Shown piece after piece: positions 1 through 59,410 of a stretch of DNA of 64,000 bases (positions within the stretch are counted from its first letter, which is position 1; the number at the start of each line of letters is the position of its first letter). The DNA lies in the IMG/VR virus record IMGVR_UViG_646311924_000007, positions 33,898 to 97,897 of that record; one strand, 5' to 3'. The DNA is from a virus. Lineage: Duplodnaviria > Heunggongvirae > Uroviricota > Caudoviricetes. The position numbers and the translations under genes are program-made. The notes beneath the pieces were generated by a model. That model ran no database searches. It saw only the letters and a program-made list of their open reading frames with translations, and was not told where the DNA came from.

Positions 1-2986
1 GTGCGCCGAGCTGGTCAAAGTAACTTGAGTTGTTGGCCACCGGACGCGCCTCTTCAACTGGCATCGGGGTATCAACATACACATTGCCAGCTGCTGTTGC
101 GGTCCCCTTCCCTCGTGCACGTTCTTCTAGCGTTCCCTGAACGACTTCCCGACGCATCCCCCGGCCATTCATGAATTTGTTGACCAGATCGTTAACGCCA
201 ACAGCATTGCCGATTTTGTCTACCAAACCGCCTTTCTCAAACGGGCTATCACCAGGGGTAAACGCCAGACCAGTAGACTGATCGATAACGGCGTTATCAG
301 GTAGTGGTTCCCTCACTCCATATTGCGCCCCACCCTGTGCTCCTGCCCCAGGTGTATAGATTTCACCACCTAAATAGCGAGCACGATGAGTATTGACCTT
401 GATCGCGTACTCACGGTTTTCCTTCGATAAGTCACCGGTGCCTTTTTTCCACTTATTAATAGTGCCAAACCCAGCGTTATATGCAGTGATGGCCTCGTTT
501 AAGTCTCCATTGGCTTGCTTCAGATACTTGCTCATGAGAAGAGCCGCAGCTTCTGCCGATTTCACAGGATCAAACGATTCACCTTCAGCTAAGCCAGTCT
601 CTTCACGAGCAATGCCCGTGAACTGAAACATTCCTAGAGCACCAGTTTGTGATTTTGCGTACGGATTACCACCAGATTCAGTTGCAGCAATCGCGTAAAG
701 AGTGCCTTCAGGAAGACCATATTTATTCTCCAGTTCAGCAAAATACGGAGCTAACTTATCGAGATTTGCCTTACCTTCAGCGCCAAGGCTTCCGACTTTT
801 ACATCTAAGTTGCCATTATTGTAGGTATCAGCAGCTTTCTGAATGTCATTCCTGGTGCCGGTGGTATTACGCGACGATGATGACGAGCTATTTTGTCCAA
901 TAGCTGAATCAATTTTCCGCACCGCGCTATTGCCCGTTTCTACGGCATTTGCATTGATAATCTGATTGGCAGTTTCTTTAACTGTTTTATTGCTATCTTT
1001 CGCCGTGTCCAGTGCCGCATTTATCACGCGGGTAGCAATATTAGTCTGTTTAGCATCGGATTCAGTTTTAGAATCAGATGTCTCCTGGTGGCTATTAACC
1101 GGAGCTTTTAACTCTGGAGTGATTTCTTTTGCATTAGCCTCGCCGATCGGATTGGGTATTTTTGATACAATCATTGCCGCAGGGGTATTTTTAACGGCAT
1201 CAACCGCTGCATCTAATGCTTTACCGGGTAAATTTTTAACCCCATCCCAAATATTACCAGCCGCCTCTTTAATGTGTTTTCCTGGGTTCTTAATGAAGTC
1301 AATTGCACTATCAATTGCATCACTGAAAACCTGTTTCAGGTTATCGACAGTAAAGAAGTCTTTTATGGCATCCAGCTTTTCAAGCAACTTATTAGATGTA
1401 TCGCTAAACCATGCTGAAACAGCATCACCAATCTTTGCTGTGTAATCATCGAACTTGGTAGAAATGGTGTCGCCAAGGTTAGAAATATATGTTTCTAAGT
1501 TGGTAACCCCACTATCAATGGCCTGGGCAATACTTTCCGTCGAAAATGATTGCAACATATTGCCGATATCCTCAAATCCAAGTGATTTGAGAACATCACC
1601 AATAGCACTGCTAATACCAGATACCAGTCCCCCCATATCGAGAACATTGGCTAACGTATAAGCGGCTTTTTGCTGGAATGATGGATCTTGTCCTGATTTA
1701 AGCCCAAACGCTCGACGTTGCGCTTCTGTATCATTCCAACCGGTTACCGCATCATAAATACCTCCAGCCACTGTGCCGACTAGGGGAATTGCGCGTAACG
1801 CCCCTTTACCAACTGCCTTTAATCCAAGTTTACCTGCTGCCCGGGCAGCCAAATCTCCGCCTTCATGGGCGAGAGTCTTCTTGCCACCACCGCGTAGCAT
1901 TCCTACAAGTTTCTTTGCCCCCAGAGCGCCAAAAGCGAGTGCTCCAGCTTTTTTCAGCATGCCACGCCCCATTAACAACGACGCGACGCCACCGGCCCCC
2001 TTCCCTAACAGGCTAAATAGTTTGGACAGCAAGCCGCCCTTCTTTTTACCGGTGTTTTTGGCTATCTGATCAAGGGCGCGGAGAATCTTGTCATTGCCCT
2101 CTTTAATTTCGCTGGTCTGCTCCTGAAGTTCCTGAACCGTCCGTTTTTGGGTGTTAACCTGAACGACATCGGCACTATTTTGCGATTTACGCCTAAAAAA
2201 ACCTTTTCTACGGCTGTTATCGTCATTGCCACGAATCACATCGGCAATAGACTTTCTGGCACCATTAAGCGATCCACCAACTTCTTTTGATATCCCGCCA
2301 AGCTCCTTCCCTGCTGCCCACAATGGACCAGCAACGGCATAACCTAACGCATCGACAGCACGAGTCTCTGAAGGGTTGCCTATGCCTTCAGCTACTTTTG
2401 ACAGTTTTTTTAATAAACCTGATTCAGCATTTAGACGCTCATCATCCTCTTTGCGCCTGGCCTTTTCAGCACGTTCAGCACGGGCATCTTCCGCTGCGGC
2501 CTTACTCCCTGACTTTCCAATAAAACGACCACGCGCATCGCGTTGGTTTTGGCTTTTTTGCGCACCGCCTTTTTGACCGAACATTTCGCGAGCGTGTTCG
2601 GCTGCTTCGGTCCGTTGCGCCTTTACATCTTCTGTTATAGCCTTCTTGCGTCGTTTTTTACCCTTTCGCGTAGTTGATTTGGCCTGCGGTTCCTGTAGAG
2701 CAACATCCTCCTGAACTACACGAGAAACGTCCCCTAAATTAAGCCGTTTCATTGCCTCAACAATAGGGTCCACTGATGGCGCATTGGCCACAAAGTCTGG
2801 CCGGGAATTTTCGATTGTGCGATTTAATGCCGACACACTACGAGAGACAGGATCAACTGTAGCAACTCGCCCCCCTTTCAAATCTTCAACGGCTTCCCGA
2901 ATACCTGCAAGCTCTTCCAGCTCTTTTGCGCTGGCGGTTTCAACCGTCCTTATCACATCGTCAATGTTGGCGTTTTTTCTTTCCAT
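1..2986 (-). CDS. sit: Sit-like tail tape-measure / injection protein with lytic transglycosylase domain (partial; 3' end beyond window start)
   Basis: Minus-strand frame open from ATG at 2984-2986 to position 1 with no stop, so absent from the ORF track; translation contains an SLT-type motif (ESGGNPYAKSQTGALGMFQF) encoded around nt 560-700 and Ala/Lys/Gly-rich low-complexity stretches; only short ORFs on the + strand. Confidence 0.7.
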   Translation of the reverse strand, partial: MERKNANIDDVIRTVETASAKELEELAGIREAVEDLKGGRVATVDPVSRSVSALNRTIENSRPDFVANAPSVDPIVEAMKRLNLGDVSRVVQEDVALQEPQAKSTTRKGKKRRKKAITEDVKAQRTEAAEHAREMFGQKGGAQKSQNQRDARGRFIGKSGSKAAAEDARAERAEKARRKEDDERLNAESGLLKKLSKVAEGIGNPSETRAVDALGYAVAGPLWAAGKELGGISKEVGGSLNGARKSIADVIRGNDDNSRRKGFFRRKSQNSADVVQVNTQKRTVQELQEQTSEIKEGNDKILRALDQIAKNTGKKKGGLLSKLFSLLGKGAGGVASLLMGRGMLKKAGALAFGALGAKKLVGMLRGGGKKTLAHEGGDLAARAAGKLGLKAVGKGALRAIPLVGTVAGGIYDAVTGWNDTEAQRRAFGLKSGQDPSFQQKAAYTLANVLDMGGLVSGISSAIGDVLKSLGFEDIGNMLQSFSTESIAQAIDSGVTNLETYISNLGDTISTKFDDYTAKIGDAVSAWFSDTSNKLLEKLDAIKDFFTVDNLKQVFSDAIDSAIDFIKNPGKHIKEAAGNIWDGVKNLPGKALDAAVDAVKNTPAAMIVSKIPNPIGEANAKEITPELKAPVNSHQETSDSKTESDAKQTNIATRVINAALDTAKDSNKTVKETANQIINANAVETGNSAVRKIDSAIGQNSSSSSSRNTTGTRNDIQKAADTYNNGNLDVKVGSLGAEGKANLDKLAPYFAELENKYGLPEGTLYAIAATESGGNPYAKSQTGALGMFQFTGIAREETGLAEGESFDPVKSAEAAALLMSKYLKQANGDLNEAITAYNAGFGTINKWKKGTGDLSKENREYAIKVNTHRARYLGGEIYTPGAGAQGGAQYGVREPLPDNAVIDQSTGLAFTPGDSPFEKGGLVDKIGNAVGVNDLVNKFMNGRGMRREVVQGTLEERARGKGTATAAGNVYVDTPMPVEEARPVANNSSYFDQLGA

Positions 2987-3067
2987 GATCTTATCGCCTA
3001 CCGCTTCGGTTTAAGTTTTTCTTCCAGTTTCTCCAACAGGAAAAACGCATAGGATTCAGTGAGACTT

Positions 3068-3949
3068 TCAGCGTCCTGAATCGGTATACCCCCATACAAA
3101 ACCAGGTTGGACACTAAGGTCTGATAGCTTTTCAATCCCCACCTGTGGAATGAAGTCGGTAGCCCGAAAGGGCACCCACAGACGGGTATACGCACCCTCT
3201 GTGGACTCCTTTGTATCCTGGTTTGGGCATTTGTGCGGCGGGAGACGAAGACGCATTTCGCCTTTATCGATGTAGCACGGTAAACCATGTTCGAGCTTTT
3301 CATGAGCCAGCCGGATGTGTGCCGCCAGCTTCATAAATTCAGTATCAATGGCCATCCGTTTGATCGTTTCATAACGACGCTCAGCCTGCTCTTCACGAGT
3401 ACCGCTAACATCGTTATAAAGTTCACACTGATAAGCGAATTCCCAAAAACGCAAATCAACGATCGCTTCTTTGAATTCCGCGTCGTCTTCAGGTGGCAAT
3501 GCTGCACGGCGCATCTCCAGCATTTCCATTGCCCAACCATCAAGCGGCACGATACGCCATTGATAAGGCACGCCCTCTACAGACACCTCAATATCGTCAA
3601 TGAACGGTTCCACTTCCAGGACCTGGATATCTTCAGCCAGAGCATTCATATCGCAATCGTAATAATGCTCTTTACCGCAATGTTTACAGGTGTAGGTGAA
3701 TGTCTCGACCGGTGTTTCACGGGAGCCAGTAAATATCCACCATAACGCGGTAATCCGGTCCTGCGCCGTCCATGTCAGGGGATCATATTTCGCGGGTTCA
3801 GCCAGCAAGGCTTTTAAATACGCCGTTGTCTGTTGTTCTTGTTCCTCCGGTGTTATCGAGTTGAAACGCATCGCATCAGCAATATTTGGCTGACGGAACT
3901 GGATCAATTCAGTTGGCCGCGATGGTAGCGGGAAAAGAGGTAAAAGCAT
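3068..3949 (-). CDS. hypothetical phage morphogenesis protein (293 aa)
   Basis: ORF co-oriented with and immediately upstream of sit in a tightly packed minus-strand array; contains a CxxC...C cluster (TYTCKHCGKEHYYDC). Confidence 0.5.
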   Translation of the reverse strand: MLLPLFPLPSRPTELIQFRQPNIADAMRFNSITPEEQEQQTTAYLKALLAEPAKYDPLTWTAQDRITALWWIFTGSRETPVETFTYTCKHCGKEHYYDCDMNALAEDIQVLEVEPFIDDIEVSVEGVPYQWRIVPLDGWAMEMLEMRRAALPPEDDAEFKEAIVDLRFWEFAYQCELYNDVSGTREEQAERRYETIKRMAIDTEFMKLAAHIRLAHEKLEHGLPCYIDKGEMRLRLPPHKCPNQDTKESTEGAYTRLWVPFRATDFIPQVGIEKLSDLSVQPGFVWGYTDSGR

Positions 3950-19700: not shown

Positions 19701-20642
19701 TTATGGATTGCGCTTATGGATCTGAAAGCCGATTTTCCTGCCGTTTTTTATCTCTGAAAATTTAAGATATTCAATAGCTTCCAAATCTTTCATGGCTTTT
19801 CTGATAACGCTATTTTGCACGCTAACGGATGATTTGAGATTAAGCCTTGCTCTAAGGCGCTCAATGCTGACAGGTGCCGGGTTGGCGGGTAGAGCCTCAA
19901 AGAATGTATACAGTACCTTGGCCGTCTCTTTGCGCCCGAGCTTATCCAGCATCTTCAGCTTCAGGATTCGCTTATAGTCAACATAGTAAAGTTCAGATAG
20001 CTGTTTCTGCGGCTGGATCTCGATAACATCAAGCTCGGTATTCAGGCTGCTATATGCCAACAAGTTGACGTTAATGTTATTGAGATGACCTTTTGCCGCC
20101 GGGAAGCGGAATTTGACAACTGTCTGCTGAATGCGTGTCAGAGAGTCATCAATACTTTTACGGAACGCCTTTGAAAGGCGCTTACGTGGATAGCCGCATC
20201 GATCGGCAAACTCGGAGAATGGCAGGGTGATTATGCCGTCATCATCAGGTGCGTAGTCAAACAACGCGGAGGTTATGCCCACCCACACCTTAAAATCAGT
20301 ATCCATATCCAGGCGTGGACCATGAATTTCAATTCCCTCATAGCCTTCCTGCTCAACAATTTTGAGGCTTGATAGTTCTTCGGTTGCGTTCGTTGTGTTT
20401 GTAGTAACTGACGATCCGCGACGTAGTGCCACATTGGTAGATTTTAAGGTTGGCACAAACACACCTAAGCGCAACAAAGCAATGGGTTGTATAGTGCTAT
20501 TGTTATTGGGTTTCAGGCTGTGGATTTCTCCTGTATTTCCTGCAACTTCTTCAACGCTAAGGAAGCCTTTATTTTCTTCCAGCATCGTGGTTTCTCCATA
20601 TGTGGCGCGGCCTGGCGTCATCTGGATTGCAGTTATCAACAA
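19701..20642 (-). CDS. repA: RepA plasmid replication initiator
   Basis: Conserved GPRLDMDTDFK core of P1/RepFIB-type initiators; flanked by iteron arrays; ORF starts with TTG in the track, so the true start is probably an internal ATG. Confidence 0.8.
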   Translation of the reverse strand: MLITAIQMTPGRATYGETTMLEENKGFLSVEEVAGNTGEIHSLKPNNNSTIQPIALLRLGVFVPTLKSTNVALRRGSSVTTNTTNATEELSSLKIVEQEGYEGIEIHGPRLDMDTDFKVWVGITSALFDYAPDDDGIITLPFSEFADRCGYPRKRLSKAFRKSIDDSLTRIQQTVVKFRFPAAKGHLNNINVNLLAYSSLNTELDVIEIQPQKQLSELYYVDYKRILKLKMLDKLGRKETAKVLYTFFEALPANPAPVSIERLRARLNLKSSVSVQNSVIRKAMKDLEAIEYLKFSEIKNGRKIGFQIHKRNP

Positions 20643-20665: not shown

Positions 20666-20765
20666 TCGCGTACAGTCAATGTTTCTGTCGCATATAGTCA
20701 ACAATAAATCGCGTGCAGTCAACAATAAATCGTGCACAGTCAACATAAAATCGCGTATAGTCAAT
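20666..20765. repeat. incC/oriR iterons (5 direct repeats, 21-22 bp spacing)
   Basis: TCGCGTACAGTCAA, TCGCATATAGTCAAC, TCGCGTGCAGTCAAC, TCGTGCACAGTCAAC, TCGCGTATAGTCAAT immediately upstream of repA. Confidence 0.75.
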
Positions 20766-20767
20766 GT

Positions 20768-20876
20768 TGATCCCATTTCAGGCCAGAAATGGCGCGGCTT
20801 ACAGCGATCCGGGATCTTCTTTGGATCTTCCTGGGTTCTCTTTAGGATCTGTTTATTGGATCTATGCTGTGGATAA
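20768..20876. other. oriR accessory region: GATC cluster and DnaA box
   Basis: Seven GATC sites within about 95 bp followed by TGTGGATAA (DnaA box, reverse orientation); architecture matches P1 oriR. Confidence 0.55.
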
Positions 20877-20918: not shown

Positions 20919-21311
20919 TTATTCTACGCTTTCGATAAGAAGACCATGTTCATAACATTTAAGCTCATCGCCTTCGTACAGGAATTGGTATCCAATACCA
21001 CCATTTTCATGGACATTAGGGAATAACTCATAACTCACTGAAGAGCAAATCACACCAATGCAGCGATCAACGCCTTCTCGTTCTTCAGTGCTGAAAAAAT
21101 CCTCTTCGGTAAGAACATGAGTACATTGCTCATCAGCATAGGTCGGAAATACATGCTCGATGCAATCCGGGTGTTTTAAACCAAGCTGATCGGCAAGCTC
21201 GAAAGCATGACGGTATTGTTCAGATCCTGGCTTGCCAACAGTGATGTGCTCAATTTTGTAGATTGAAGTCGCTTTGTTGATAGTTTGCTTTACTGTTACT
21301 TTATCAGACAT
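20919..21311 (-). CDS. hypothetical protein (130 aa)
   Basis: ORF; Cys/His-containing acidic protein; no clear motif. Confidence 0.45.
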   Translation of the reverse strand: MSDKVTVKQTINKATSIYKIEHITVGKPGSEQYRHAFELADQLGLKHPDCIEHVFPTYADEQCTHVLTEEDFFSTEEREGVDRCIGVICSSVSYELFPNVHENGGIGYQFLYEGDELKCYEHGLLIESVE

Positions 21312-23113: not shown

Positions 23114-23130
23114 ATTGCTCTAATAAATAT
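23114..23130 (+). promoter_or_regulatory. C1 operator-like 17-mer (ATTGCTCTAATAAATAT) at the start of the uhr-hrdC-dmt operon
   Basis: 16/17 match to consensus; its last base is the first base of the uhr start codon. Confidence 0.6.
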
Positions 23131-23486
23131 TGTTTTTTATGTCGTATTTTCGGTACCATTCAGCCATCGCCCTTCAATGGGCATTTGTTTGGAGTCGTCA
23201 GATGCAGATGGAGCTAATAAGCCGCAAAGAGTTCGATAGCCGTGTAACCAGCGGTGAACTCGACAACTTGCAGGCTATCAAGGTGAAAGAAGGCTTTTGC
23301 CTCATTGGGAATCAGAGCGGAATAAATCGCGTTTTTATGCTTCGCCGTACGGATTTGAAGCCATTTGTCTGGAAGAACGAAATTGGTCCCAGCTCATACG
23401 CTCAAACGAGGGGGTGCCACAACCTGGCCTTTTTCTACAAAGACGAGCTTTCTGTGGTTGATATTCAAGGGTTACAACATGTTTAA
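23130..23486 (+). CDS. hypothetical protein upstream of hrdC (118 aa ORF)
   Basis: ORF overlapping the hrdC start by 8 nt. Confidence 0.45.
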
Positions 23487-24384
23487 GCACTGGAAAAACA
23501 TTACTATTTATAAACTTTCTCGTGAGGCGGATCTGACCGACTTAGAAGATAAAAAGAAAATGATCCTTTTCACGCCATGCGGTAGTCAGGATATGGCCAA
23601 GTTCGGTTTTGTATCGCCATTTGGTGATAATTCTGAAGTTATCGCTATGCATGGAAATGGTTTTATCCTTGTTGAAGCAAAGCGCGAAACAAAAATTCTT
23701 CCCCCGCCGGTTATCCAGCGAGCTATTCAAGAAAAAATTGAAAAACTTGAGCAAGAACAAGCGCGTAAACTGAAGAAAACAGAGAAGGACTCCCTGAAAG
23801 ACGAAGTTCTGCATTCTCTTCTGCCACGGGCTTTTTCAAAGTTTTCTGTTATCCAGGCGATCTACGACGGTTCAACTAAACGTATCTATATCAATGCCAG
23901 CGCGCGGCAGGCAGAGGATATGCTCGCGCTTATGCGTAAGTCTCTGGGTTCTCTTCCTGCTGTTCCCCTGAGTGTTGAAAATCCCATTGAATTAACGCTG
24001 ACCGACTGGGTACGTGATGGTAGTGCTCCACAGGGATTTCAAATGGGGGATGCGGCAGAACTTAAGGCAGTGCTTGAGGATGGCGGTATTGCCCGAGTGA
24101 AAAAGCAGGATTTGGGAAGCGATGAAATTTCCACACACCTGGAAGCTGGCAAGCTCGTCACTAAGTTGGCACTCGACTGGCAGAACCGCATTAAATTTAC
24201 ACTGGACCATAACTTCAGCCTTACCAGCGTCAAATTTGCGGATGAATTGCTTGAGCAGAACTCTGATATTGATAGTGAAGATGTTGCGCAGCGACTGGAC
24301 GCAGATTTCTTCCTGTTGACCAGTGAAATTTCGTGCCTGGTTGATGCTCTGGTAAATGCCCTTGGCGGAGAGGCTAAGCAGTGA
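23479..24384 (+). CDS. hrdC: RdgC-like recombination-associated protein (HrdC)
   Basis: Strong similarity to E. coli RdgC as I recall it ([13 protein letters not shown]..., [34 protein letters not shown]); ATG at 23479 chosen over the longer track ORF starting 23365. Confidence 0.8.
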
Positions 24385-27300
24385 AAGAGCTGTGCTATGG
24401 ATCTGTTTGCAGTGGAATTGAAGCCGCGAGTATTGCCTGGGAACCGTTGGGTATGCGTCCGGCGTGGTTTGCTGAAATCGAGCCTTTTCCATCGGCCGTT
24501 CTTGCGCTCCGCTGGCCCCATGTTGCCAACCTTGGCGACATGAAAAAACTTGCCAAAAAAGTCTTGGCTGGGGAAATCGAATCCCCTGACGTGCTCGTCG
24601 GGGGAACACCATGTTTTACCGCGGGGCATATGGTTCTTTGTAAAAATGGCTATAAACCAATAGAAAATGTTTGCCCTGGTGATTACGTAGTCAGTCATCT
24701 CGGGCGGTTACAACAAGTAAAAAGAGTTGGTTCAAAAATAGCTAATACGGGGTTACTTAATGCCGTTGGGCAGCCTTTAGGTATAAGAACAACCAATGAC
24801 CATCCCTTCCTGGCTGTTCGGTGGAAAGCCCAAAACACCCGGAAAAATGGCACATATTTTAAGAGAGAGTTGTTGTCTGAACCGGAATGGCGAGCAGCAT
24901 GTGATATGCCGGGATATCAATGGTGCGCTCTAACTAATTTCAATATTGCATTTCCAGATATTTGTTCTCGGTTCTTGTCTGAAGAACAGGCTATGTATCT
25001 TGCGGGCGCTTATGTTGGCGATGGATATATTAGGAGATGGAGAGGTAAATCTAAGAAGGCGGTTGTTTTTGGCATAAATTGCCAGAAATTGAGAAAGTTT
25101 CATTGCCGCATACCAGAAAACATATTTTCCGTGGCAAGCGAAATCCGAGGGAGCATCAAAGTAACCTTGAATGATACGTGTTATGCCAATTGGCTTAATG
25201 AACATTTTGGCGAGTTAAGCCATGCTAAGCGTATCCCTGCATGGGTGATGTCGCATCCATTGCGTCATGTGTTTTTACAAGGCTATCTTGATACTGATGG
25301 GACACCAAGTGGTAAAGCGGGATTTAGAATTAATAGTGTTAGTTCTGCGCTTGCTTGGGGCGTTGCGGGGTTGTCACAGACTTGTGGTTATGTTTCTTCG
25401 GTCAGCTTTATTGAAGTTGAGCCCAAAAAAGTGATCGAGGATCGCGTGGTAAATCAACGGAATTATTATCAGGTAACAATCTGCCCGCAGAAATTGTCAC
25501 GTAAATCAAGATTGGCTCATGGAATGCTTTTACGAACAGTCAAAGAGTTTAAATCGGTAGGCCTAGATACTGTATACAACATAGAAGTCGAAGGTGATCA
25601 TTCCTATATCCTCAATGGTGCGGTGGTCCATAACTGTCAGGCATTCAGTATCGCGGGATTACGTGGTGGGCTTGATGATGAGCGTGGCGCGCTAACTTTA
25701 AAGTATGTGGAGCTTGCAAATGCAATTGACGACAAACGGGCTGAGTCATTTCTCAAACCAGCCGTTATCGTCTGGGAAAATGTCCCAGGAGTCTTGTCAT
25801 CGGCAGATAACGCCTTCGGATGTTTCCTTGCCGGATTGGCTGGAGAAGATGTGCCATTTGAACCAGGTGATCGACCTGAATCAGGAAAAAGCAACGCGTT
25901 CTGGCGGTGGGATGGCAAAACCGGTTGCCATGTTCCAAAGTGGCCGCAGTGTGGTTGTATTTATGGACCGCAGCGAAAAGTGGCCTGGAGAATCCTTGAT
26001 GCCCAATACTTCGGAGTGGCACAACGACGCCGACGCGTGTTTGTTGTCGCAAGTGCTCGAACAGATCTCGATCCCGCAACGGTACTTTTTGAGTTCGAAG
26101 GCGTGCGCCGGAATATTGCGCCGAGCAGAGGCGAGGGGAAGGAAACTACCAGATATACTTCAAACATCGCTATCAGAACTTGCGATGATACAAACATAAT
26201 TGCCATGGCACATGGGCAAGGAGGGGCTGAGATAAAAACCGATAATTCGGCACCAACTTTGACATGTAACCATGAAGCACCAATTGTATTGCTCGGCGAC
26301 GGTAGAATGCGCCGTCTTACCCCTGTCGAATGTGAAAGGCTGCAAGGTTTTCCTGATTGGCATACGTTGATCCCTACGGAAAAGCGTAAAAAAGTTAATT
26401 CAGATGAACTGGCATATCTGCACAATCACTATCCAGATTTAAGCGAAGAAGAGGCCGCAATGCTTGCAGCTGACGGACCGCGTTACAAAGCGATCGGCAA
26501 TAGTATGGCAATACCAGTAATGCGCTGGATTGGCGATCGGATTACTAAGGCCGTATGTCGGCAGAAAGAAGGAAGTGAAACAAAAGAGCGAAAAGTTAAA
26601 CCAGCGGCAGAATTCGAACGGTCCATATTCAAATGGGCTGGTGGAAAATTTGGTGTTCTGGAACAAATCTTTCGCTATTTGCCAGAAGGGAAGCGCCTGA
26701 TTGAACCTTTCGTTGGTGGCGGAGCTGTCTTCATGAATGCCGGATACCAGGAAAATCTGCTAAATGATGTGAATGCTGACCTGATTAACTTTTACAAGAC
26801 TCTGCAACGCGAGGCGCATTCACTTATCACTCTGGCACATCGTTTCTTCCAGGACTACAACACACAGGAAGGATACCTGGCAGTACGGAATGCGTTTAAC
26901 AAACAAGTCTATGATGATTTACATCGCGCAGCGGCGTTTTTGTTCCTGAACCGACATTGTTTTAACGGATTGACGCGTTACAACCAGGCCGGTGAGTTCA
27001 ATGTCGGTTATGGGAAGTATAAAACTCCGTATTTCCCATTACAGGAGATGGAAGCCTTCCTCGGTGCGGAAGGGCGGTCTGAGTTTGTATGCGGTGATTT
27101 TGCAGCGGTGATTGAAGCTGCCGGAGAAGGAGATGTCATCTTTTGCGATCCGCCGTATGAACCGCTTCCAAATACAGAGGGATTCACGAACTATTCCGGT
27201 CATGACTTTAAGTTTGAAGAGCAAAAACGCCTGGTGTCTCTGTTGACGGATGCTCATCGTCGAGGTGCAAAGGTTCTCATTACTAACAGTGGCGCGCCAA

Positions 27301-27422
27301 ACATCAGAGAGCTTTATCATGACAGTGGCTTCAGAGTGGAACCTCTTTTTGCCAGACGTTCTGTGTCTTGTAAGGGGGACACTCGAGGTGTAGCTCATGA
27401 CGTTTTGGGTATATTGCTCTAA
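24381..27422 (+). CDS. dmt: bifunctional DNA methyltransferase Dmt (N-terminal C5-cytosine MTase interrupted by an intein; C-terminal Dam-like N6-adenine MTase)
   Basis: C5-MTase motifs I ([13 protein letters not shown]), IV ([12 protein letters not shown] split by insert), VI (ENV), VIII (QRRRRVF), X (GNSMAIPV); C-terminal FVGGGAV and DPPY motifs of Dam-type MTases; GTG start at 24381. Confidence 0.85.
24612..25634 (+). mobile_element. intein with LAGLIDADG homing-endonuclease domain (341 aa; Dmt residues 78-418)
   Basis: Begins with Cys (CFTAGHMVL, block A), block B TTNDHPF, two LAGLIDADG-like motifs ([21 protein letters not shown]), ends VVHN followed by the extein Cys of the PCQ motif. 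Confidence 0.8.
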
Positions 27423-28174: not shown

Positions 28175-28261
28175 GGGGAGTTAGTCCGTAGGGGTAGCGG
28201 GGTAGACTGTAAATCTACTGTCATTGCGACTCGGGTGGTTCGACTCCATCACTCCCCACCA
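28175..28261 (+). tRNA. tRNA-like gene, class II, anticodon GUA (Tyr-like)
   Basis: Acceptor GGGGAGT/ACTCCCC, anticodon stem-loop GTAGA-CUGUAAA-TCTAC, 15-nt variable arm, T-arm GGTGG-TTCGACT-CCATC, CCA encoded; D-arm geometry irregular by 1 nt. Confidence 0.45.
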
Positions 28262-56647: not shown

Positions 56648-56732
56648 TTGATTGCTTGCCCGTTCCGGGCCTTTTGACATGTGACTTTCGTTACCCTCGC
56701 GTCAAAAAGAGTTTTTACGAAAGGAAGCATAA

Positions 56733-57926
56733 GTGACCTGGGACGATCACAAGAAGAATTTTGCTCGCCTGGCGCGAGATGGTGGTTACACCATCGCACA
56801 GTATGCCGCCGAGTTTAATCTTAACCCTAATACCGCACGTCGTTATCTCCGTGCCTTCAAAGAAGACTCCAGGACTGCGGACAGCCGCAAGCCAAATAAG
56901 CCAGTCAGGAAGCCACTAAAAAGCATGATCATTGATCACTCTAATGATCAACATGCAGGTGATCATATTGCGGCTGAAATAGCGGAAAAACAGAGAGTTA
57001 ATGCCGTTATCAGTGCCGCAGTCGAGAATGCGAAGCGCCAAAATAAGCGCATAAATGATCGTTCAGATGATCATGACGTGATCACCCGCGCCCACCGGAC
57101 CTTACGTGATCGCCTGGAACGCGACACCCTGGATGATGATGGTGAACGCTTTGAATTCGAAGCTGGCGATTACCTGATAGATAACGTTGAAGCGCGGAAG
57201 GCCGCGCGCGCTATGTTGCGTCGGTCCGGGGCCGATGTTCTGGAAACCACTCTTCTTGAAAAGTCTCTTTCTCATCTCCTTATGCTGGAGAACGCCAGGG
57301 ATACGTGTATTCGCCTGGTGCAGGAAATGCGCGATCAGCAAAAAGACGATGATGAAGGTACTCCGCCTGAATACCGTATCGCGAGCATGCTAAACAGCTG
57401 TTCCGCGCAGATAAGCAGTCTGATCAACACCATTTACAGCATCCGGAATAACTATCGAAAAGAAAGCCGGGAGGCGGAAAAGCACGCTTTATCTATGGGG
57501 CAAGCTGGCATTGTTAAGCTGGCATACGAACGAAAGCGTGAAAATAACTGGTCAGTGCTGGAAGCAGCTGAATTCATCGAGGCGCATGGTGGGAAAGTTC
57601 CGCCCCTGATGCTGGAGCAAATCAAAGCCGATCTGCGTGCTCCTAAGACCAATACCGATGATGAGGAAAGGCAAACAGCCGTCGGTGGCCCTTCTCTTGA
57701 AGATCTGGACAAAGTTGCGCGAGAACGGGCCGCCAGCCGCCGCGCTGATGCCGCATTGTGGATTGAGCATCGTAGAGAAGAAATTGCCGATATCGTCGAT
57801 ACAGGTGGTTATGGTGATGTCGATGCGGAAGGCATATCAAACGAAGCATGGCTTGAACAGGATCTGGACGAAAACGAGGAGGAAGACGAAGAAGTTACCC
57901 GCAAACTGTACGGGGATGATGATTAA
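56733..57926 (+). CDS. pacA: terminase small subunit PacA (397 aa)
   Basis: 397 aa as in P1 PacA; contains the pac GATC-hexamer cluster near its 5' end; acidic C-terminus. Confidence 0.8.
56925..57085 (+). other. pac: pac packaging site (4 + 3 TGATC(A/G/C) hexamers)
   Basis: GATC at 56927, 56934, 56946, 56961 and 57057, 57069, 57080 separated by about 90 bp. Confidence 0.75.
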
Positions 57927-59410
57927 TGGCCAGAAGTTGCGTAACGGACCCACGTTGGCGCGAGCTGGTGGCGCTATATCGTTATGACTGGATTGCGGCC
58001 GCTGATGTGTTGTTTGGGAAGACACCAACCTGGCAGCAGGATGAGATCATTGAGTCCACGCAGCAGGACGGCAGTTGGACAAGTGTGACCTCCGGCCATG
58101 GTACTGGTAAGTCGGATATGACGAGTATCATTGCAATACTCTTCATCATGTTTTTCCCCGGCGCTCGCGTTATTCTGGTCGCTAACAAAAGACAGCAAGT
58201 CCTTGATGGTATTTTCAAATACATAAAGAGCAATTGGGCTACTGCTGTTAGCAGATTCCCGTGGTTGTCGAAGTATTTCATTCTTACAGAAACGTCTTTT
58301 TTTGAGGTGACTGGCAAGGGTGTTTGGACAATATTGATAAAGTCCTGTCGCTCCGGAAATGAGGAGGCGTTGGCTGGTGAACACGCCGATCATCTCTTGT
58401 ATATCATCGACGAAGCGTCGGGTGTGAGTGATAAAGCATTCAGTGTGATAACAGGTGCGCTGACCGGTAAGGATAACCGTATTCTGCTTCTTTCCCAGCC
58501 TACGCGACCTTCAGGCTATTTCTACGATTCACACCACAGACTAGCTATTCGCCCGGGAAATCCTGATGGATTGTTTACTGCGATAATACTGAATAGTGAA
58601 GAATCTCCGCTTGTAGATGCAAAATTTATACGAGCAAAACTTGCGGAGTATGGCGGTCGTGATAACCCCATGTACATGATCAAAGTACGTGGTGAATTTC
58701 CCAAATCTCAAGATGGCTTTCTTCTTGGTCGTGATGAGGTTGAGCGGGCGACGCGGCGAAAGGTCAAGATTGCCAAAGGATGGGGCTGGGTTGCATGTGT
58801 TGACGTTGCTGGTGGCACAGGACGAGATAAGTCCGTTATTAATATCATGATGGTGTCCGGCCAGCGAAATAAACGCCGTGTAATCAACTATCGTATGCTG
58901 GAATACACAGACGTTACAGAAACGCAGTTAGCCGCCAAGATTTTCGCAGAATGTAACCCAGAACGGTTCCCGAACATAACCATAGCTATTGATGGCGATG
59001 GCTTGGGGAAATCGACGGCTGATCTGATGTACGAACGCTATGGTATTACCGTCCAGCGTATCCGCTGGGGTAAAAAGATGCACAGCCGTGAAGATAAAAG
59101 CCTTTATTTCGATATGCGCGCTTTCGCGAATATTCAGGCGGCAGAAGCTGTAAAATCAGGGCGTATGCGGCTTGATAAGGGGGCTGCGACTATAGAGGAA
59201 GCATCAAAGATACCGGTAGGGATAAATTCCGCAGGTCAATGGAAGGTGATGTCAAAGGAAGATATGAAGAAAAAACTCAACCTGCACTCACCGGACCATT
59301 GGGATACATATTGTTTCGCTATGTTGGCGAACTATGTTCCCCAAGATGAAGTGCTTAGCGTCGAAGACGAAGCGCAGGTTGATGAAGCTCTGGCATGGCT
59401 TAATGAATGA
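57926..59410 (+). CDS. pacB: terminase large subunit PacB (494 aa)
   Basis: 494 aa; translationally coupled to pacA (ATGA overlap); ATPase-like GTGKSD motif. Confidence 0.8.

Follow-up and report, generated by a model that had tools for sequence, protein, structure and literature searches.

In a 64,000-nucleotide stretch of IMG/VR virus record IMGVR_UViG_646311924_000007 (positions 33,898 to 97,897 of that record; hereafter the window), two dense clusters of GATC, the target of Dam-type adenine methylation, accompany a gene, dmt, for a fused cytosine-C5 and adenine methylase that is interrupted by an intein. We consider it likely that the first cluster is the canonical P1 pac site, that the second is the core of the plasmid origin oriR, and that the intein is a selfish element targeting C5-methylases rather than a regulator of pac and oriR methylation. 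Judging from its sequence, the window is part of a P1/P7-family phage-plasmid, because both the lpa-pacA-pacB region and the origin region match relatives of this family: the former, around pac, is 98% identical to P7 and P1, and the latter is 100% identical to vB_EcoM-Ro157c2YLVW (hereafter Ro157c2YLVW) and 95–97% identical to SJ46, JL22 and RCS47. P1 annotations were taken from record AF234172, those around pac being transferred to the window with an offset of 55499; all feature coordinates are collected in Table 1.

The pac site and the oriR core

We scored GATC density anywhere in the 64-kb window and in 300 dinucleotide-preserving shuffles of it. GATC is not enriched overall (243 observed versus ~252 expected), which taken by itself would agree with chance clustering, but pac and oriR are the two densest clusters of the window. 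At pac, seven GATC fall within 160 bp where 0.61 would be expected, and seven or more occurred anywhere in only 1 of the 300 shuffles; the density of the oriR core, six in 100 bp, was likewise reached in 1 of 300. Moreover, both clusters lie where pac and oriR were mapped by experiment in P1, and both are maintained in relatives. Given the shuffles, the conservation and the P1 annotation, we rejected the explanation that the clusters are chance features, to which we assign a practically negligible probability.

The whole pac site spans positions 56926–57084 and lies inside the pacA open reading frame (ORF), in its 5' part and downstream of lpa and the late promoter LPpac, as in P1-type pac. 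The likeness to P1 pac extends to the position in pacA, the 4 + 3 arrangement of TGATCA/G hexamers, the IHF site and cleavage zone between the two arms, and LPpac. In total, 218 of 221 bases are the same in the two sites, and all three substitutions fall in the spacer, none in a hexamer. One of them (A>G at 56993, common to P7) leaves the IHF-site equivalent with 12 of 13 bases as in P1, whereas another is the single change in the cleavage zone (G>A at 57009), which is specific to the window and replaces V by I in PacA. Among the seven phages whose GATC layout we compared (three with the intein and four without), this stretch of 165 bp has 13 variable columns, none of which falls in the seven hexamers. 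By all of these features the flagged stretch is a canonical P1-type pac site. An eighth hexamer, TGATCG at 57107–57112, stands 23 bp past the right arm, outside the canonical 4 + 3 site, and is kept in all seven phages. By analogy with P1, PacA/PacB would cut pac only once its GATC adenines are methylated; the need of pac cleavage for methylation is described in a review (PMC12707154, citing Sternberg & Coulby 1990).

The second cluster is, as its layout indicates, the GATC-rich core of the plasmid origin oriR. It contains six GATC in 94 bp (at 20769, 20806, 20813, 20824, 20846 and 20859), with the next one beyond the core at 21065, and its surroundings follow the order annotated in P1, namely iterons, GATC-heptamer core, DnaA box and adjoining repA. 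Common to both origins are the GATC core, a DnaA site and five iterons at 21–22 bp spacing, as well as four of the five annotated P1 Dam sites (1, 2, 3 and 5). Site 4 has been lost (GGTTC) and two sites have been gained, so that six GATC in the window compare with five annotated Dam sites in P1. Further differences are that P1 has two tandem DnaA boxes where the window has one consensus box, and that the iteron sequence and RepA type of the window are those of SJ46, RCS47 and Ro157c2YLVW. The replicon is accordingly a variant common to SJ46, JL22, RCS47 and Ro157c2YLVW and not the P1 reference type, which implies another incompatibility specificity.

By analogy, this origin would also need Dam methylation, which host Dam would supply in the plasmid state. 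Replication from a P1-type oriR is expected to require Dam methylation, with SeqA sequestering the hemimethylated DNA. Methylation sensitivity of P1 oriR is reportedly the subject of Abeles & Austin 1987 and Abeles et al. 1993, to go by their titles. An earlier reading of the window, made from its sequence only, had taken the sensitivity of P1 pac and oriR to adenine methylation as established, and the literature bears this out (PMC12707154 and the Abeles titles). The same reading had described 4 + 3 GATC-containing hexamers inside pacA, in agreement with the hexamer positions, the ORF and the identity to P1, and seven GATC in about 95 bp of oriR; here the cluster is real but the number is not, and we replace the count of seven with six in 94 bp. 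Both pac and oriR are long-established methylation-dependent sites, and their presence is textbook P1 biology with nothing new in it.

Dmt and the intein in its cytosine-methylase domain

Dmt is encoded by a single ORF of 1013 codons. Its N-terminal part belongs to the C5 DNA_methylase family (Pfam PF00145, 104.9 bits) and has the ENV, QRRRR and GNS motifs, but it is split by Hint and LAGLIDADG matches at amino acids 77–418, and motif IV (GGTP/CQAFS) is regained only on removing the intein. The adenine methylase module follows ~330 amino acids past the splice junction, after a hydrophilic linker. It matches PF02086 with 192 bits, carries PFVGGGAV and CDPPY (the FxGxG and DPPY motifs), aligns to residues 4–266 of the 278-residue E. 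coli Dam (E = 3e-58), and is near-identical between intein-plus and intein-minus alleles. Pfam and the alignments speak against an N-terminal position of the Dam domain in P1 Dmt. The properties of the Dam module suggest an enzyme that is complete and folds independently; the unspliced precursor, the spliced protein and every by-product of N- or C-cleavage would all contain it. For P1 Dmt, the record (AF234172) gives GATC as the methylated site.

Compared with P1 Dmt and P7 Dam, the window allele has the same operon position (uhr-hrdC-dmt, under Odmt), the same fusion of C5-methylase and Dam, and 91–97% identity outside the insert; it differs from the reference alleles of both phages in carrying the intein, which they lack. 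A second difference, from P1 only, concerns the C5 variable (target-recognition) region at about amino acids 583–640 (~26120–26300), which exists in two unrelated versions: the P1 type is longer, with 82 extra amino acids, and the window has the short P7 type. All four combinations of variable-region type (P1 or P7) and intein presence were found, and recombination within dmt is therefore frequent, with cytosine specificity probably differing between lineages.

The insert itself is exact. Relative to P1 Dmt (754 amino acids) and P7 Dam (672 amino acids), 341 amino acids (1023 bp) have been added between GGTP and CQAFS. They start with CFTAGHMV, contain a block-B TNDH and two LAGLIDADG motifs and end with VVHN, which places the splicing residues at C78, T138..H141 and H417-N418, followed by C419. 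The residue after the intein is thus the catalytic Cys of C5-methylase motif IV, and the residue before it, at -1, is Pro77 (the Pro77/Cys78 junction lies at 24609–24614). Among relatives with 28–55% identity, which occupy the equivalent position in other C5-methylases, no change is seen in Cys1, the block-B T..H, either LAGLIDADG motif, the terminal Asn or the +1 Cys.

Pfam recognized LAGLIDADG_3 above the gathering cut-off, but Hint_2 fell 0.2 bits under it and Intein_splicing also just under, a first point against our interpretation, and searching the PDB by sequence produced only marginal matches. Given these marginal Hint scores, we modelled the insert with AlphaFold2 (AF2; predicted local distance difference test, pLDDT, 92.1; predicted template modelling score, pTM, 0.89). 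In a Foldseek search with this model the top 16 PDB matches were all bifunctional LAGLIDADG inteins (E 1e-16 to 4e-10), including PI-SceI, TliVMA, PhoVMA, PI-PfuI and PI-PkoII, which makes up for the weak profiles. Pfam alone would have been insufficient as proof of an intein, and it took the aligned indel, its homologues and the Foldseek matches to settle the question: by all sequence and predicted-fold criteria the Dmt insert is a genuine class-1 LAGLIDADG intein. With PI-SceI, TliVMA, PI-PfuI and PI-PkoII the insert shares the HINT fold, as modelled, the inserted LAGLIDADG endonuclease, Cys1, the block-B T..H, the terminal His-Asn, the +1 Cys and an insertion at the active-site motif of a conserved enzyme. 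It differs from them in sequence (11–16% identity), in being hosted by a C5 DNA methylase, in that its +1 nucleophile is the catalytic Cys of the methylase, and in its native -1 Pro.

We infer that the intein splices. Lying between Pro and the catalytic Cys of motif IV, it would splice out and rebuild the cytosine methylase, and because motif IV is split and the catalytic Cys doubles as the +1 nucleophile, C5-methylase activity, as predicted from this arrangement, must depend on splicing, whereas Dam is not what splicing must control. In methylome studies of P1-like elements we would thus expect cytosine-methylase activity, not Dam activity, to hinge on splicing.

Distribution and probable mobility of the intein

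The intein was found in three distinct phages (five records) of the phage collection, namely Ro157c2YLVW, RCS47 and OP279344, and is absent from reference P1, P7, SJ46, JL22 and others in the same collection. In PLSDB, intein DNA occurs in 128 records, compared to 470 that have the Dam part of dmt (~27%), and 151 of 5426 complete E. coli genomes (~3%) carry it, in 147 plasmid and five chromosomal places. OP279344 is a laboratory P1vir with an intein-plus, P7-type dmt (682–3723 of the compared stretch) and plaques normally. Laboratory P1 lineages hence differ at dmt, the intein being present in OP279344 and not in the reference P1 c1-100.

Possible traces of mobility flank the insertion. The three extein codons directly on its 5' side (24603–24611) read GGA ACA CCA in intein-plus and GGT ACG CCT in intein-less alleles, and in the downstream extein (25635–25700) GGA/GAG/CGT stand against GGC/GAA/CGC, all of these differences being synonymous. 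Either co-conversion in the course of homing or a target site that has become immune to the endonuclease could account for such differences. The 1013-codon frame is open in independent isolates at 95–100% DNA identity.

A search for relatives, limited to one genome per species, returned 58 full-length proteins. At least 25 of these 58 sit at the Pro/Cys junction of C5-methylase motif IV (~30 if PC-T variants are counted), in hosts from Proteobacteria, Firmicutes, Chloroflexota, Bacteroidota, Spirochaetes, candidate phyla and one archaeon, and the C5-methylases that harbour them are stand-alone enzymes without a Dam fusion; the remainder reside in other host proteins. Given this placement across phyla, the family tracks the active site of C5-methylases, and not Dam, pac or oriR. 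From its sequence and those of its relatives, we interpret the intein as a selfish homing element targeting motif IV of C5-methylases; it presumably homes, to which its patchy distribution, the four combinations with the variable-region types and the synonymous changes beside the insertion lend indirect support. More distant relatives (22–29% identity) occupy other host proteins in recurrent contexts, ...SPD/C.../C[TK]HFSKAKGG in bacteria and ...QQLSA/C.../CFVLPV in archaea.

To our knowledge, E. coli is usually regarded as an intein-free host. Our literature search for an intein in P1-like elements found no paper describing one, and in the single review where the two terms occur together 'intein' has another meaning. 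Automated annotation labels the intein-plus proteins as methyltransferases, either Dam-family or cytosine, and now and then as 'Hint domain-containing' or 'LAGLIDADG family homing endonuclease'. An apparently undescribed intein is thus carried by roughly one in four P1-like phage-plasmids, by ~3% of complete E. coli genomes and by one or more laboratory P1vir stocks, and P1 in E. coli offers a tractable system for intein homing between co-resident plasmids. Inteins in DNA methylases of actinophages have already been described (Gosselin et al. 2023, PMC9957025). Likened by description, those are also LAGLIDADG inteins with a patchy distribution, inserted in a conserved region of an orphan phage methylase and with signs of transfer between divergent alleles; the intein of the window differs in being carried by phage-plasmids of Enterobacteriaceae and in interrupting another methylase family, fused to Dam.

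Splicing and the timing of adenine methylation

According to the P1 record, dmt is the last gene of uhr-hrdC-dmt and is transcribed from the sigma-70 promoter Pdmt under the C1 operator Odmt/Op68. Operator and promoter are conserved in the window (23114–23159), and because dmt lies behind a conserved C1 operator, it should be off in the plasmid prophage, with host Dam then serving oriR. Expression of dmt as a late gene from an Lpa-dependent promoter is unsupported, as the P1 record gives sigma-70 Pdmt under Op68. In a CRISPR interference screen of P1, dmt was non-essential in a Dam+ host (PMC10695390), and according to a review (PMC12707154) it is needed only in Dam- hosts, for packaging.

Putting these elements together, Dmt would be made as a 1013-residue precursor from the C1-repressed uhr-hrdC-dmt operon, and its C-terminal Dam module would be active before splicing. 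The sequence-only reading, by contrast, proposed that the timing of self-methylation could depend on splicing, since the Dam-like domain is translated downstream of the intein-interrupted C5-methylase domain. In the form weighed here, methylation of pac, and also of oriR, would wait for splicing, and the intein would act as a packaging timer. That order of domains is correct according to Pfam and the ORF, and there is no stop between intein and Dam module in the single frame. The dependence of pac cleavage on methylation (PMC12707154) would give such a timer something to act on, and the invariant -1 proline could slow splicing. Against it, the Dam module is complete, is far from the junction and is part of all processing products; ~73% of P1-like plasmids lack the intein and yet have identical pac hexamers; relatives of the intein are found in C5-methylases without a Dam fusion; and intein-plus P1vir grows normally. 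In addition, host Dam methylates GATC anyway, which leaves dmt dispensable in Dam+ hosts, and C1 repression makes dmt irrelevant to oriR in the plasmid state. Nor did the GATC layout of pac and oriR co-vary with intein status in the seven phages: the six-GATC origin occurs in intein-plus (Ro157c2YLVW, RCS47) as well as intein-minus (SJ46, JL22, MH422554) elements. With an optional intein, no GATC co-variation, a complete Dam module, and a dmt that is C1-repressed and dispensable, the proposal that splicing sets the timing of self-methylation is unsupported, and we regard it as very unlikely.

Adenine methylation could also be uncoupled from the intein in another way, namely by a Dam-only product initiated internally at Met694, possibly with the help of an internal promoter. 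A good Shine-Dalgarno sequence with suitable spacing precedes the ATG at 26460, a gene call in vB_EcoM-673R5 has a 320-residue adenine methylase beginning at the equivalent ATG, and immediately 5' of this start the P7 record has a predicted internal late promoter, LPdam2. However, LPdam2 is a weak consensus prediction from which the window differs at two positions, and conservation of the Shine-Dalgarno-like sequence is confounded by coding constraint. We therefore hold this route to be rather unlikely, although it is the least improbable of the alternatives considered here.

Besides the profile scores given above, several points weigh against our preferred interpretation of the intein as a selfish element without a role in pac or oriR methylation. 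Full Dam activity of the unspliced precursor is something we infer from modularity alone. The timing of dmt is that of the records' annotation, where Op68 is experimentally named in P1 and the late promoter is predicted in P7. Finally, published work (PMC6486613) reports that inteins, whether natural or engineered, splice badly or not at all with a proline at -1, and this residue is invariant throughout the relatives at the C5-methylase site, so efficient splicing is not to be assumed next to a native -1 proline. The family at this site is either naturally proline-tolerant or slow-splicing. In the former case, that is, if splicing does occur beside the -1 proline, it would be a candidate source of proline-tolerant inteins. 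In the latter, the intein might splice slowly or conditionally and thereby time Dmt, certainly its cytosine methylase and, if the precursor is unstable or hindered, also Dam acting on pac when host Dam limits rapid lytic replication; we see only a slim prospect of this.

The same proline, unfavourable in model splicing systems, would also fit an intein that is decayed or a poor splicer, leaving a crippled C5-methylase, and perhaps an affected Dam, as a tolerated lesion in a dispensable gene. The non-essentiality of dmt, the many short or partial copies in databases and the fragmented dmt of vB_EcoM-673R5 point in this direction. Nevertheless, none of the catalytic splicing residues and neither of the LAGLIDADG motifs has been lost, and they are conserved down to 28% identity in relatives that also have the -1 Pro, the frame is open over 1013 codons in independent isolates, and the insert yields a confident model. 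Decay thus seems improbable compared to an intact selfish intein. As for vB_EcoM-673R5 (282–2544 of the compared stretch), its dmt is annotated as three ORFs, which could reflect real frameshifts or sequencing errors.

Table 1 Features of the window discussed in the text, with positions counted from the first nucleotide of the window
Feature	Positions	Strand	Basis
repA, iteron-binding initiator with Rep3 winged-helix domains	19701..20642	-	Domain matches; RepA annotation of relatives
Five RepA iterons, equivalent of incC, 21–22 bp spacing	20666..20768	-	Sequence; comparison with P1
oriR GATC-rich core, six GATC	20769..20862	-	Sequence; comparison with P1
DnaA box (TGTGGATAA, + strand as written)	20868..20876	-	Sequence; P1 DnaA site annotation
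C1 operator Odmt/Op68 (ATTGCTCTAATAAATAT), overlapping the -35 of Pdmt	23114..23130	+	P1 annotation and sequence
Pdmt promoter	-35 23130-23135, -10 23154-23159	+	P1 annotation and sequence
hrdC (RdgC family), upstream of dmt in the operon, stop overlapping the dmt start	23479..24384	+	Domain match; P1 and P7 records
dmt, 1013-residue precursor (C5-methylase + intein + Dam module)	24381..27422	+	ORF, Pfam, alignments
Intein, amino acids 78-418 (Cys1 ... His-Asn, +1 Cys, LAGLIDADG endonuclease domain)	24612..25634	+	Indel versus P1/P7, Pfam, relatives, AF2/Foldseek
Intein-less insertion site, GGTACGCCTTGTCAGGCATTC			
Candidate internal start AGAGG-N5-ATG (Met694, 320-residue Dam-only product), speculative	26450..26462	+	Sequence; annotation of a relative
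D12-class Dam-type adenine methylase module, amino acids 752-984	26634..27332	+	Pfam; alignment with E. coli Dam
Late promoter LPpac (ATGTGACTT ... TACCCT)	56679..56697	+	Identical to P1 annotation/sequence
pacA, terminase/pacase subunit A, containing pac	56733..57926	+	ORF list; 98% identity to P1/P7 pacA region
pac left arm, four TGATCA hexamers each with a Dam GATC (starts 56926, 56933, 56945, 56960)	56926..56965		Sequence; identical to P1
IHF-site equivalent of P1 pac (AAACAGAGAGTTA), predicted	56988..57000	+	Transferred P1 annotation
Equivalents of the primary P1 pac cleavage sites	57008..57017		P1 annotation; seven-phage alignment
pac right arm, three hexamers (TGATCG 57056, TGATCA 57068, TGATCA 57079)	57056..57084		Sequence; P1 alignment
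pacB, pacase subunit B	57926..59410	+	ORF list; P1 annotation

Apart from these features, the window has an extra 87-nt tRNA-Tyr (GTA) at 28175–28261, between tRNA-Asn and tRNA-Thr, which in the P1 reference are 2 nt apart with no tRNA-Tyr between them.

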